From: Planctomycetota bacterium
Lineage (GTDB): Bacteria > Planctomycetota > UBA8742 > UBA2392
Assembly: GCA_020638675.1 (NCBI GenBank)
Contig: JACKID010000001.1
Location: forward strand, 1,518,225-1,582,224
Reading direction: 5' to 3'
Length of the DNA: 64,000 nt
Positions 24,701-30,700 of this stretch are shown here, in pieces. A program made the position numbers. How positions within the stretch are numbered: the stretch's first letter is position 1; every line of letters starts with the position of its first letter.

Positions 24701-27700
24701 GGGCTCTCCGTAAGGCGCAAGCCCCATCAGCTTGTATTCACCGGAGTTGACCTTGAAACCGCAGTAGTAGGTAAACGCCGAGTACAGCAGGCCCAGCGAG
24801 TGCGGAAAGCGCAGCTCGTGTGTCAGCCTGAGCTGGTTTCCCTCGCCTATGCCGATGCTGGCCGTGGACCATTCGCCAACGCCGTCCGCGGTGATGATTG
24901 CGGCCTCCTCGAAGGGGGACGGAAAAAAGGCCCCGGCCGCGTGCGATTCGTGGTGAGCGGCGAACACGAAGCGGCGGCGGTATCCGGGAAGCTCCTTTCG
25001 CATGGTGCGCGGCAGGCGCAGCTTCTTGTGCAACCAGATGGGCATGGACCGCATGAAGCTGCCGAGGCCGGCTGGTGCGTACGCCAGGTATGTTTCCAGC
25101 AGACGGTCGAACTTGATGAGCGGCTTTTCGTAGTACGCCACGTAGTCCAGCTTGTCATAGGACAGCCCGGCGTGTTGCAGGCAGAAGTCCACCGCATGCT
25201 TTGGAAAGCCGTCGTCGTGTTTCTTGCGTGTGAAGCGTTCTTCCTGTGCTGCGGCGACGATCTCGCCGTCCACGACAAGGGCCGCGGCGGAGTCGTGGTA
25301 GAAGGCGGAGATTCCAAGCACAGTGGTCATGTGCGCGCATTGTGATATCGCTGGCCGCGATTGGAAGCCTCGCGCTGAAACCTCGACTCCGGTCGCAAAC
25401 TTCCGCTAAAGGCTTTGAGTGAGTGCCGCCGATAGACGGGGACGGCAGGGCGCAATGGGCGCCCGCTGCAGAGACCGCCACTTCAGGAGCACTCCAATGT
25501 CCGATACCACCATGGAACGCAGGCTTGACGAACGCCGCGGTCCGGTCCGCCGCAACACAGACATCAAGCGCGCACTGCTTGAGGAAAGCCTGCGCGAGCT
25601 GCCCCGCTACTTCGTCAGCTACGTCGACAAGACGCAGGGCGTATACAGCTTCTACTACAACAACCTCTACGACGCGCAGATGATGGTCGCCGAACTGAAG
25701 CGCCAGGGCGTCGAGGAAGACTCGATCGCGATGTACGGCCGCCACGACGAATAACTAAGCCAGGCAAGGCACGACACGCCGGGCGAGCACGCCCGGCGTT
25801 TGTCATTCACTGGTGTCGCGCGCCACCCGCCGATGGAAACGCTCCTGCTGAAGTTTCCGGGCCAGCTCGCGCATGTCGACCGTCGGGTCCGTTTCGTCCA
25901 CGATCTCAACACCCAGCAGCGTTTCCACTATGTCTTCAAGCGTCACGACGCCGGTCGTCCCGCCGTATTCGTCGACGACCAGCAACATGTGTTCTTTCTG
26001 CTTGATCACTTTTTCGAACGCTTCCGTCGCGGCGGCTGTTTCGGGAATGGCTTCGATCGGGCGGGCCATTGTCCCGAAAGTGTGATCGAGATGGCCTTCC
26101 CTGACGGCTTCCAGCACGTCCGCGCGGTGCACGATGCCGAGCGTATCGTCGATGTTGCCCGCCTTTGCCACCGGCATGCGGGCGAAGCGTGCTTCTCTTT
26201 CGGACTCGCTGAATTCTCCGACCGTCATTTCGGCCGGGACATACTCGACCACGGTGCGCGGCGTCATGATGTCCGAGACGCGGACTCGTCGCAGCGTCAG
26301 CAGGTTGGTGATGACCTGCGCCTCCGACTGGGTCAGGCTGCCGCCGGCGACGCCGAGGTCGGCGACGGCGGCGACTTCCTCGCGGCTGATCTGCGTAGTT
26401 TTGCGATTTCTGGCAACAACTGCACCCACCAGCTGGGCGGCCAGCACCAGCGGATAGAGCAGATAGATCATCACCTGCGTGGTGGTTGCCGTGAATCCGA
26501 CCAGCCGATTTGCATACATGGTGCCGAGCGTCTTGGGCACGATCTCGGTCAGCAGCAGGATTGCGATTGTCAGCAGCCCGCTGGCCAGCCCCAGCCACTT
26601 GTCGGTCCAGAGGTGCGCAACCTGCGCGCCGACGCCCGCCGCGCCGACTGTGTGGGCGACAGTGTTTGCGCTGAGGATCGCCGCCAGCGGCCTGTCGGGT
26701 GCTTCCTTGTGCGCTCGCATGAGCCGCGCGGCGCGATCGCCCTTTTCGGCCAGTGCGTTGACGTGTCCGACCGAGATGCTGAGCAGAGAGGCTTCCAGCA
26801 GGCTGCACAGGAACGATACGCCCAGCGCGAGCACCAGATAGAAGATCAACAGTCCCATGACGACATACTACGTATCGCCCCCCATTGCGGGCGGATAACC
26901 GGTCCGGTTTACTCGAAACATGAAGGGGCGACTTGCGGGTGTGCTTGGGCCTGTGTCAGGGGCGCTGTTCTTGCTGGTGGCCATCCTGGCCGGCTGGAGC
27001 GTGCCGACAGCCCTGATCGGCGGCGGGTGCGCCATGCTGGCAGGCGCGCTGGCCGGATTTGCGTGGATGCGTTTGGGGCAGAGGGACAAAGAGACAAGTG
27101 AGTAACGAGACCGAAGACGATCAGCCAACAGTACGCGGCGCGACCCACACGCCCGACGGCAAGGAACTGCGCAAGATCTGGGATAAGTACCGCTCGGGCG
27201 GCGACGTCGAGTCACGCAACGAGTTGACCGAGTTCTATTACGACATGGTCCGCGCCAACACCGAGAACATCGCCAAGATCCTCGTGGAAGCGATTGAGGA
27301 AGGCGACCTCGGCCAGGCCGGCGCCGTGGCCTTCTTTGAGGCCATGAACGAATTTGATCCGGCCGTTCACAACAGCTTCGAGGAATTCGGCAGCCTCGCG
27401 ATCCGCAAGGCAATAGTGGACGAGATTCGCGGGTTGGTGGGCAGCGAAGAGACGCCCGACGACCTTCAGTAAAGCCGTGCTCCGACTCGATCCGAAGCGC
27501 CGCCAACGTGCGGCGCTTCTTCACATTCCGGTGACTAAAAAAATCTTCCCAAGTCGTTTGACCAATTGGATTTGAGGGTGTAAGTTATAAAGTGTAAAAT
27601 ACACCCCATCAATTACGGAGTCTTCCATGCCCACCATCGCTCCCGAGCCCACACTCCCCCGTTACGGCTTCTCACGCGCATCTGCCTATCTGCCAAAGGC

Positions 27701-30700
27701 TTATGTCCAATCTGGCGGTGCCAAAGGGGTGACCAAGAAGGCGCTCGACGCGCTTTGGGCGAAGTTCAAGGGCAAGGGCGACGACTCCGCCCGCGCTGAG
27801 TTGATCCAGATGTATCTGCCGCTCGTTCGAGTCACGGCCGAGCGCATGCACGGCAAGCTGCCCAGTCACGTGGACGTCGACGAGCTGATCCAGGCCGGCG
27901 TGTTCGGGCTGATGGACGCGATTGACGGGTTCGACCCGGAGCGCGGCGTCAAGTTCGAGGTCTACGCCAAGCAGCGCATCAGCGGCGCCATCCTCGACGA
28001 CCTGCGCAACCAGGACTTCGCGCCACGCCTGGTTCGTACCCACAGCCACCGCATGGACCGCGCCTACAAGGACGTCGAGGCGGACACCGGCAAGATTCCC
28101 GAGCCGGCCGACGTGGCGGAGCGTCTCGGTATCTCGCTTGAGGAGTACGACCGCTGGATGCGCGAGATCAACATGGCGAACATCGTCAGCCTCGACCGCG
28201 CCAGCAGCGAGTACGACGGCGAGGGCAAGGAGATCCGCAAGGTCGACACGATCGAGGACGCGGACGCCGAGGCGCCGACCAACAACCTTGAGAAGCGCGA
28301 GCTGGTCGAGCTGGCAACGCGCGGTCTCAGCCGCAAGGAAAAGCTGATCGTCATTCTCTACTATCTTGAGGAGCTGACGATGAAGGAGATCGGGCTGGTG
28401 CTCGACCTGAGTGAAAGCCGCGTCTGCCAGATCCACCACCGCATCATCTACCGCCTCAAGGAGTCGCTGGAACGCCTGCGCGACGACTTGCTCGGCTAAG
28501 ACCACACGTGTCACGCGCTGCACACGCTGCACGCCGGAGCCCGGGGGCAACCCCGGGTTCTGTGCATTCCGGGGCTTGCGGGCTGCATAATAAGGAAGCA
28601 GAGTGGCCCGCCTCCCCGTTGCAGACGACCGATCTTTTAGCTAACCGTTTGTCCGTTCGGTCGTTACATTGGATGTGCTGACCCCGGCCAGCCCCTCTCG
28701 GATTACGATTCCATGCACAAGTGGCTTTTCCTTGCAGTAGTGTTGGCAGCGTCAGTGCTCGTTTGTGACAGTCTGCGGGCCGAAGACACTCTCCAGTTTC
28801 CGCGCATTCGTCAAATGCAGGATCTTGTCCGGCGCGCCAGCGACAGCCGGTACAAAGACGAGGGCGGGTTGCTCGGCCAGGATGCCTTCTCGGCGGGTTT
28901 CAGCGCGGGCTATATCAGCGACTACTACTGGCGCGGGTTCAAGCTGTTCGACAGCGACTTGCTGGTCCGTGGCGATGCCTACGTGAACGTCTACGGGTTT
29001 GAGGCCAGCGTATGGGCCATGTGGGATGCGGGGCGGGACAAGTATCGCCCCACGGAAGTGGACTACCGCTTCCGCTATAAATTTGAGATCGAGGGTGCGC
29101 TGATCTCGGTCGGTTACACCTGGTATGACTTTTCCGGCAGCGACGGCGACCTGGGCCGCCGCGACCAGGGCTTTGGCCGACAGCCGCTGAAGCAATTCCC
29201 GAACGACAAGTTCCCGGCCAGCATCCACGAGCTGCACATCATGCTGACGTACTTCACGTCCGTGTTGCAGAGCGAGGGCGCCAACCTGCGCTACACGCTG
29301 AACTACTGGCAGCGGCTGGATGACGAGGGCTCGCGCTGGGAGAGCTCGATCAGCCTGTTCGTAGACAGCCCGACCTTCACGGTTTTCGGCGACTATTTCG
29401 AGATCACCACCACCACGATTTATCAGCACCGCTACCTGACCAACCGCTCGGAATTCCAGGGCCAGATCAGCAGCGCCCGTGTGGTGTACAACCTCGACAA
29501 GTACGGCATCTTCCCGATGTTCATTCAGCTGGAAGCTCACTACTACATCGCCTTCGACGACGATTATGTGGACGGCTTCTACTTCGGCGGAAGCTTGAAC
29601 TTCCGGTTCTAGCCCGTGCCTGCGGCGGCATGTTGTTGACATAGCGCCAAAGACTCGGGACGCTGGACACAATGGCTTCGAGCAAAGGGACTTCCGTCTT
29701 CAGCAGGGCGCGCGGATGGGTGCGCGCGGCCATCGGCCGTGTCATCCGCCGCGGCTTCTTCAGGATTGTACTGCTGCTTTTCCTGATCCTGTTTGTCATC
29801 CCTTTCACGATCCTGAACGCGTTCGCGAACCGCTCCAGCGCGAACAAGATCATGCACGAGGTCGTGGGCATCGTCTTCAACACGACCATCGCCGACGTGA
29901 GCTGGGACGAAGAGCGGACTGTCTTCACCGGCCCCAGCATCACGCTGACCGGCAGCATCACCTACTACGACCTGAAGGTCACCCGGAAGTCCGGCGAAAC
30001 CGCGCACCCGCGCGGCACTGCGCTCAAGTACGACTTCCTGCGGATCCCCAAGGTGCAGATCAACTACGACCTGAAACGCCTGCCCAACCTGCCCGTCACG
30101 GCCGTGAAGCTTGAACAGGGCCTGACGCTATACTTCAACATTCACAAGGGCGACTGGCTGGATGCGGACATGTTCCAGACAGGGGGCGCCGGCGGCGGCG
30201 AAGTGCCGGTTCTGCCGGAGATCATCACGCAGGGCACCTGCGACGTGAAGTTGCGGGCGGACGGAATTCTTGTGCCCCCGGAGAGTCTGGACGCGGGCAT
30301 TGACTGGTACGACATGCAGGTCAAAGGCCTCAGCCTTTTGCCCAACCCGAATTCGGCGGACCAGTTCGTGATCGGCGGCAGCCTCAAGTCCGACCGATTC
30401 GGTGAGTTCACCCTCGGCGGCTCAGTCGGGCAGCGCGCACAGCACGTCGACGTGCTGTTCCGGACGGCGAAGCCCATCGAGATCAATCGGTCTTACGCTG
30501 CTGTGCTAGCGGAGGACGTGCGCAATACGGTCGAGCAATTCCAGATCACTGCAAAGACCAGCATCAAAGAGGCCAAGGTCGAGATCGAACCCGGCAAGGA
30601 GTTGCAGTTCTCGGCCGACATCGAAGCGCAGGACGGCTCGATCTGCTTCATCGGCTTTCCTTTGGCGGTCTCGGACGTCACGGCCGACATCACGGTGCGC

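Follow-up and report, generated by a model that had tools for sequence, protein, structure and literature searches.

A conserved gene for a stand-alone sigma-2 domain beside fliA in uncultured Planctomycetes

Genes at the locus

The window analysed here is a 64,000-nucleotide stretch of a Planctomycetota bacterium (assembly GCA_020638675.1, contig JACKID010000001.1, positions 1,518,225 to 1,582,224 of the forward strand), and all positions below are counted from its first letter. It carries, directly upstream of fliA, a small gene whose product corresponds to regions 1.2-2.4 of a sigma-28-type sigma factor and contains nothing of regions 3 and 4. We refer to it as the sigma-2-only gene. It is preceded by the gene of a membrane microprotein, so that three genes stand in a row:

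26920..27105 (+): gene of a 61-amino-acid (aa) microprotein with two transmembrane (TM) segments; it runs 8 nucleotides (nt) into the sigma-2-only gene, across the GTG start
27098..27472 (+): sigma-2-only gene; 124-aa protein with regions 1.2-2.4 of a sigma-28-type factor, without regions 3 and 4
27627..28499 (+): fliA; full-length FliA/WhiG (sigma-28) factor of 290 aa, 243.4 bits with TIGR02479 (cut-off 189.6), with Pfam Sigma70_r2, r3 and r4

The sigma-2-only protein is a region-2-only paralog of FliA

A preliminary description of this stretch had proposed a region-2-only sigma paralog immediately ahead of a complete sigma gene, and the comparison of the two products bears this out. They share 32% identity over 90 ungapped residues (BLASTP, E 1e-14), the small protein aligning without gaps to FliA residues 38-127, and the aligned blocks are those quoted in that description. 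With the FliA/WhiG models the sigma-2-only protein matches just the first ~100 positions (45 bits, E 9e-12). With TIGR02479 it reaches 42.4 bits at model positions 3-70 of 224; since this falls short of the cut-off and neither sigma-3 nor sigma-4 is present, the protein lies outside the FliA/WhiG family as defined. The downstream factor had been called FliA/SigB-like; the FliA half of that name is upheld by TIGR02479, a FliA/WhiG model, and the SigB half is not. A profile built from the sigma-2-only proteins and searched against the PDB matched the sigma-2 region of WhiG (E 4e-13) and FliA structures (E 2e-8 to 3e-4).

Among the domains that define the sigma-70 family, sigma-2 (regions 2.1-2.4) is present in the small protein, and for sigma-4, the region 4.2 helix-turn-helix that reads the -35 element, Pfam gave no r4 match and no r3 match either. 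The absence of regions 3 and 4, as proposed earlier, holds also at the DNA level: in a tblastn search with FliA the sigma-2 stretch was the sole match, and the 154-nt intergenic gap contains no remnant of either region. The stop codon lies 13 residues past region 2.4. In the Sigma70_r2 profile comparison, FliA covers positions 1-69 of 71 and the sigma-2-only protein scores 18.3 bits, below the 24-bit gathering score, which is why most records label it hypothetical. Across the family, which stays below Pfam and NCBIfam thresholds, the database annotation is either hypothetical or a mis-named FliA.

The start of the gene had to be revised. The TTG at 27059, which would give 137 aa, has no counterpart in most related loci; the conserved start is GTG 27098, all related loci starting 36-44 codons ahead of an RNxLT motif, and the deposited homologue is likewise 124 aa long. 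The composition of the open reading frame (ORF) is coding-like, with a G+C content at third codon positions (GC3) of 0.77 in a genome of 63% GC. The protein is strongly acidic (isoelectric point 4.3, net charge -16), and its aligned core carries a charge of -9 vs -3 for FliA's own sigma-2. No curated Pfam or NCBIfam family covers it and no domain besides sigma-2 was found in these databases. Searches of PHROGs and BFVD gave weak, generic sigma-factor matches at most, and Rfam returned a single chance CRISPR-repeat match (E 0.41) over 25300-29000. Full-text searches of the literature brought up no paper that describes this family or any stand-alone sigma-2 paralog of FliA.

Conservation and descent

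The sigma-2-only gene is conserved and under purifying selection. The subfamily to which the window protein belongs (subfamily 1) comprises 48 clusters at 90% identity, 116-142 aa in length and 65-100% identical to the window protein; all named clusters come from metagenome-assembled genomes (MAGs) of Planctomycetes, and the gene is present in 17 GTDB species representatives. Its pairwise ratio of nonsynonymous to synonymous substitution rates (dN/dS) is 0.04-0.25. Between the window and L005 (related loci carry L numbers), dN/dS is 0.050 for the sigma-2-only gene and 0.037 for fliA. The two outcomes that the preliminary description had named as grounds for doubt, a lack of conservation and a degraded pseudogene, are thus not what these clusters, species and ratios show.

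An exhaustive search of 1.84 billion representatives brought up a second, divergent subfamily (subfamily 2, 37-44% identity) of 113-147 aa, which scores 82-90 bits with the subfamily-1 profile and outscores every full-length sigma factor in that set (<=72 bits). Its members have a true stop directly past region 2.4. The protein of L022 is 37-47% identical to other sigma-2-only proteins vs 31-36% to FliA sigma-2 domains, and sequence comparison places the sigma-2-only proteins together as a monophyletic group. Since subfamily 2 is nearer to subfamily 1 than to any FliA sigma-2, the duplication is older than the split of both lineages. The best explanation is that the 5' part of fliA was duplicated long ago in a Planctomycetota lineage, and that the resulting gene was kept as a separate regulator.

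Gene neighbourhood

The most constant neighbour of the sigma-2-only gene is the two-TM microprotein gene. An ORF of this kind (56-80 aa) lies directly 5' of it in nearly all loci of both subfamilies and was not detected in L016, L019 and L021. By tblastn the microproteins of one subfamily are homologous to those of the other (E 1e-7 to 1e-6), and they align collinearly, each a hairpin of two hydrophobic segments with poorly conserved termini of ~8 aa and 10-30 aa. Scans with Pfam, NCBIfam, PADLOC and PDB profiles detected no anti-sigma domain in the microprotein. In the window's clade (clade 1) the two genes are tightly or translationally coupled.

In both clades the fliA orthologues show 57-97% identity. 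Within subfamily 1, fliA is the next gene 3' in the window, L004, L005, L006, L008, L014 and L015; in 14 of the 21 clade-1 loci fetched it is not adjacent and other genes take its place. It is nevertheless kept in the genome of L001, ~45 kb away on the same contig (L025), and in that of L019, on another contig (L028). Of the pair, whose conservation was a check proposed earlier, both genes are kept and adjacency has been lost in many relatives. In subfamily 2, L022 and L024 have the order flhB-flhA-flhF-[74-78-aa ORF]-[sigma-2-only]-fliA-[100-aa ORF]-surE, and L023 has [~78-aa ORF]-[sigma-2-only]-fliA, the 101-aa gene call there using a longer start. The ancestral arrangement has the sigma-2-only gene between flhF and fliA; adjacency to fliA is ancestral and not obligatory. 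The microprotein gene, the flhB-flhA-flhF context and the loss of fliA adjacency in many relatives did not figure in the preliminary description.

In many bacteria the slot between flhF and fliA is occupied by flhG. In L022 and L024 (4100-7500) it holds no MinD-type flhG/fleN gene. Directly 3' of fliA these two clade-2 flagellar clusters have an ORF of 100-102 aa (MAG(M/F)ATS...NIYPA(Q/E)F(G/A)QIS...; L022 7542-7844, L024 7747-8055; 39% identity), which is absent from the window and is a candidate for an anti-sigma factor or a flagellar accessory protein.

Downstream of fliA the window contains two further genes:

28713-29612 (+): 299-aa protein (p299), with a signal-peptide-like N-terminus and a C-terminal ...FRF
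29672-33712 (+): 1,346-aa protein (p1346), with one N-terminal hydrophobic segment

Genes for p299 and a ~1,340-aa protein follow fliA in the window and in 10 of the 11 related clade-1 fliA loci that reach far enough, the exception being L026, and they stay with fliA even where the sigma-2-only gene lies elsewhere. Both are candidates for a FliA regulon or function in the window's clade.

On the other side, an ORF of ~85 aa (MERRLDERRGPVRR...ELPRYFVSY...GVYSFYYNNLYDAQ...ELKRQG) lies at 25497-25754 (+). Of the 21 clade-1 loci fetched, 20 have it within 0.1-1.6 kilobases (kb) upstream of their sigma-2-only gene, and it was not seen in L009, where the contig ends close upstream; the gene of a CNNM/CBS protein sometimes stands between the two. 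Its mean identity of 84% exceeds that of the sigma-2-only protein, and it could be a further partner of the module. For the microprotein, the ~85-aa ORF, p299, p1346 and the 100-aa ORF, nothing rose above noise in Pfam, NCBIfam, PADLOC and PDB profile searches. The remaining neighbours in the window are ligA, a carbamoyltransferase gene, the CNNM/CBS gene, rlmN and argG. On the minus strand, 21794-25330 encodes a small protein resembling SxtJ (PF19588, E 6e-10), a 429-aa protein with weak GDSL similarity and the carbamoyltransferase (PF02543/PF16861), a three-gene row that may be a small modification cassette unrelated to the sigma-2-only gene.

Transcription signals

Three signals frame the sigma-2-only gene:

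26885..26913 (+): conserved putative sigma-70-type promoter TTGCGG-17-TTTACT; the microprotein ATG lies 6 nt past the -10 hexamer
27494..27519 (+): GC-rich hairpin past the sigma-2-only stop; 10-bp stem in a 63-nt stretch, minimum free energy -23.4 kcal/mol, z -1.98
27558-27563 and 27581-27586 (+): fliA promoter TTGACC-17-TAAGTT, conserved as TTGAC(C/G)-17-TAnnTT

The arrangement CCCCATTGCGG...CCGGTTTACTC-N5-6-ATG is common to nine loci (window, L004, L005, L006, L007, L008, L011, L014 and L015), which suggests that TTGCGG-17-TTTACT is the promoter and that the microprotein mRNA is leaderless. In L009, L010, L012, L013 and L018 there is instead TTGCGC-17-GATAAT or a close variant, with a leader of ~30 nt. 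A sigma-28 promoter has the form TAAA-N15-GCCGATAA. A promoter of this type was considered 5' of the microprotein gene, where GCGGATAA and GGCGATAA are similar to its -10 consensus; inspection by eye showed no TAAA at -35, and the candidate was rejected; the sigma-70-type reading of the microprotein promoter fits better.

Behind the sigma-2-only gene a terminator had been placed at 27494-27529. The hairpin itself was recovered at 27494-27519; it has no T-run, only a weak T tract, and a consensus terminator scan did not call it. In L005 the stem is unchanged and the loop differs; L004 and L006 carry canonical hairpin-plus-T-run terminators of unrelated sequence at the same place. The hairpin is a probable terminator. 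The promoter TTGAGG-17-TAAAAT proposed earlier for fliA is present at 27572-27600 and overlaps the conserved promoter block, but its -35 hexamer recurs only in L005, the closest relative. Every clade-1 locus examined has the conserved form TTGAC(C/G)-17-TAnnTT 5' of fliA, among them L025 and L026, in which fliA and the sigma-2-only gene are not neighbours, and it is recognisable in L022-L024. Because the hairpin or terminator and this conserved promoter lie between them, the sigma-2-only gene and fliA are separate transcription units, as had been proposed. The -10 hexamer is followed by an AT-rich block, ATAAAGTGTAAAATACACCCCA, at 27587-27608, with the core GTAAAATACAC. The block is kept across clade 1 and partly in clade 2. 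It contains the palindrome GTGTA-AAA-TACAC and may be an operator or an element of the 5' untranslated region.

Residue-level comparison with sigma-28 structures

Residues were mapped by an ungapped profile alignment to sigma-28 of Pseudomonas aeruginosa (Pa) and its structures (PMC12784957). D70 and Q73 of the sigma-2-only protein align with the region-2.2 motif D-L-x-Q-x-G. Neither residue varies among 38 subfamily-1 and 6 subfamily-2 sequences, whose identity is otherwise just ~40%; G75 shows no variation within subfamily 1 and is mostly Ala in subfamily 2. By mutagenesis, the equivalents of D70 and Q73 in sigma-70 and sigma-32 (D403, Q406) are key for core binding. The specificity-loop FDP and the helix-2.4 basic residues R103, K/R104 and R111 are conserved as well.

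In Pa sigma-28, Y76 stacks on the flipped -11A, R80 contacts -12G (R80A retains 15% activity), R32 and H36 contact the -7 nucleotide, R40 is a FlgM contact, and R82 lies at the FlgM interface and forms a salt bridge to E209 of sigma-4 in the compact state (PMC12784957). The corresponding positions of the sigma-2-only proteins are:

Y76 (sigma-70 Y430): F/Y97, kept in both subfamilies
R80: Ala101 in subfamily 1; R, K, Q or H in subfamily 2
R32 and H36: Ala53 and Asn57
R40: Ile61
R82 (sigma-70 R436 position, the near-universal region-2.4 Arg): R103, invariant

FliA of both carrier clades also differs from other planctomycetal FliAs. It has an N-terminal extension of 35-50 aa, DFAPRLVR replaces DWVPRLVR, and the near-universal RIRG Arg, at the sigma-70 R436 position, has become S, H, G, D or T, the very Arg that the sigma-2-only protein keeps.

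Discussion

As an observation, the sigma-2-only gene is solid; its mechanism is what we infer. The protein is probably a regulator of the sigma-28 factor FliA or of RNA polymerase. Our leading interpretation, to which we give a probability of roughly 0.4, is that of a membrane-linked sigma-2 mimic, which would bind the beta-prime clamp helices in a non-productive way and modulate the formation of sigma-28, and possibly other, holoenzymes, the microprotein controlling its availability. Judged from the conserved residues, the protein would retain the face of helix 2.2 with which sigma factors attach to the beta-prime clamp helices of the core enzyme. The window's subfamily has lost the group-3 Arg for reading -12G, and the protein is strongly acidic, so it would fill the sigma-2 docking site of the core without directing promoter recognition. 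Once docked, it would dampen or time the assembly of holoenzymes, those with sigma-28 and possibly those with other sigma factors. The microprotein, co-translated with it, would set the free amount of the protein by membrane retention, which in the ancestral setting may have taken place beside the flagellar export apparatus. This mimic reading is favoured by a homology to sigma-28 that spans regions 1.2-2.4 and nothing beyond, and by the retention of both genes where they are unlinked (L001/L025, L019/L028). It also draws on the invariant D70 and Q73, the Ala at the R80 position in subfamily 1, the acidity, the purifying selection, the monophyly of the sigma-2-only proteins, the conserved microprotein gene and the flagellar context of subfamily 2.

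Several points weigh against it. Bound to the clamp helices, a free sigma-2 domain would be in competition with all sigma factors, seemingly a high cost for a gene under a housekeeping-type promoter. DNA contact is possible, since F/Y97 and the invariant R103 are kept and subfamily 2 has a basic or polar residue at the R80 position. Direct binding to the microprotein is uncertain because its soluble parts are very short and poorly conserved. Moreover, the window's clade has no flagellar genes close to the sigma-2-only gene: there are none in the 64-kb window, and flhA, flhB and flhF were not found in the clade-1 loci. All carriers are uncultured MAGs. Finally, a role as a decoy or in binding FliA fits the data about as well as competition for the core.

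The first of these two roles is that of an anti-anti-sigma decoy, in which the sigma-2-only protein would mimic sigma-2 of FliA, titrate an anti-sigma-28 factor (FlgM-like or other) and so free FliA, by analogy with the partner switch of PhyR. In Alphaproteobacteria the sigma-like domain of PhyR is an anti-anti-sigma mimic: it consists of sigma-2 and sigma-4 of the extracytoplasmic function (ECF) type, is joined to a receiver domain and binds NepR. The likeness is one of function (see PMC4551977), a degenerate sigma-derived domain serving as a protein-binding mimic; the sigma-2-only protein differs in being a single domain derived from group 3, with no receiver domain by Pfam and NCBIfam and no known anti-sigma partner. 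The decoy reading draws on a sigma-28-derived domain that adjoins fliA in flagellar clusters, is acidic and has lost DNA-contact residues, on the invariant R103, which corresponds to R82 at the FlgM interface of Pa sigma-28, and on the conserved 100-aa ORF after fliA in L022 and L024, which could be an anti-sigma factor. However, when Pa sigma-28 is in complex with FlgM, most of the binding energy comes from sigma-4, L204R shifting the dissociation constant (Kd) from 2.2 nM to 422 nM, and the sigma-2 contact mutants R40E and R82E change the Kd for FlgM only 3-4 fold (PMC12784957). A decoy made of sigma-2 only would for this reason bind FlgM poorly, and its residue at the R40 position is Ile. 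No FlgM was detected in any protein scanned, the FlgM domain (PF04316) giving no match at E up to 1 for the sigma-2-only protein, the microprotein or the 100-aa ORF of L022/L024. The decoy reading also leaves the invariance of the core-binding D and Q unexplained, and we regard it as rather unlikely.

The second role is that of a dedicated FliA partner, which would bind FliA in trans, through its sigma-4 or its clade-specific N-terminal extension, and act as an anti-sigma factor or chaperone by imitating the compact packing of sigma-2 on sigma-4 known from inhibited sigma-28. It is exactly the two carrier clades that share the FliA extension, DFAPRLVR and a missing RIRG Arg, a residue which the sigma-2-only protein has retained; in a by-eye alignment, window FliA has a Glu at the position of E209, the partner of R82 in the Pa salt bridge; and the two genes co-occur even where unlinked. 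The reciprocal residue pattern is, however, a correlation over only two clades, and the conservation of the core-binding motif and the membrane partner are left unexplained. We regard this role as unlikely.

Less probable still is a working minimal or accessory sigma factor, which would bind the core and recognise a -10-like element without a -35 contact, by analogy with T4 gp55, or would supply sigma-2 to another protein, by analogy with RsoA and SigO. T4 gp55 is a minimal late sigma factor that has sigma-2-like function only, binds to the beta-prime clamp helices and depends on gp33 and the sliding clamp. The likeness lies in that sigma-2-like function, and the difference is that gp55 is a working sigma factor; in subfamily 1 the DNA-reading Arg is lost. 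RsoA of the two-subunit sigma factor SigO-RsoA of Bacillus subtilis, reportedly described by MacLellan and co-workers in 2009 (MacLellan et al. 2009), is a small stand-alone region-2-like protein encoded beside a sigma factor gene. SigO lacks the core-binding part of regions 2.1/2.2 and depends on RsoA. PMC10141391 lists the SigO-RsoA pair. Our protein resembles RsoA in being a small stand-alone region-2-like protein encoded beside a sigma gene. In contrast to SigO, the FliA encoded here has a complete sigma-2 with a canonical DELIQAG, so no partner deficiency exists and no complementation is needed; nor are the two genes co-transcribed, and their linkage is dispensable. A minimal sigma factor would account for the retained sigma-2 fold and core-binding motif, for the conserved F/Y97, FDP, R103, K/R104 and R111, and for the basic or polar residue at the R80 position in subfamily 2. 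Against this stand the subfamily-1 Ala at that position together with a net charge of -16, the fact that no sigma-4-only partner was seen in any locus, and phage sigma models that match weakly and generically.

That the gene is a non-functional remnant of a duplicated fliA or a chance ORF is effectively refuted: a Sigma70_r2 score under the gathering threshold and the hypothetical label in the majority of records could be cited for it, but the length is constant with a real stop past region 2.4 in >60 clusters of two deeply diverged subfamilies, dN/dS is 0.04-0.25, a GC3 of 0.77 points to coding-type composition, nothing is left of regions 3/4, and promoter, translational coupling and terminator are all conserved.

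To return to the mimic reading, the closest sequence relative of the sigma-2-only protein is FliA/WhiG (group 3), which aligns without gaps over regions 1.2-2.4 and gives the best PDB profile matches. The protein differs from it in lacking region 3, the sigma-3/4 linker and region 4, in the replacement of the -12G Arg in subfamily 1 and in being far more acidic. In its working, by analogy, it would be most like the sigma-domain mimics. FlgM and FlhG/FleN share its neighbourhood and presumably its target process, the timing of sigma-28 activity, but have no relation to it in sequence or fold, and the loci examined showed no FlgM and no MinD-type ATPase. One could further speculate, with little confidence, that microprotein and sigma-2-only protein form a flagellar checkpoint of Planctomycetes that replaces FlgM/FlhG in the flhF-fliA slot. 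The membrane-held mimic would then be set free or retained depending on the condition of the export apparatus and would gate the sigma-28 holoenzyme by occupying FliA or the beta-prime clamp helices; in the window's clade the module would have been uncoupled from the flagellar genes and may control another FliA regulon, the conserved fliA-p299-p1346 block.

Few sigma-derived domains are, to our knowledge, reused as regulators; the known examples are PhyR's sigma-like domain, RsoA and T4 gp55. As a small, soluble protein with a confidently predicted fold, the sigma-2-only protein allows the central claim to be tested directly in vitro, using a heterologous core enzyme. If true, a naturally selected free group-3 sigma-2 domain would be a new control of sigma competition for core RNA polymerase. 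Flagellar gene regulation in Planctomycetes is, as far as we know, essentially unknown, and this domain, paired with a membrane microprotein in the flhF-fliA slot, would offer a way into the timing of flagellar genes in this group.

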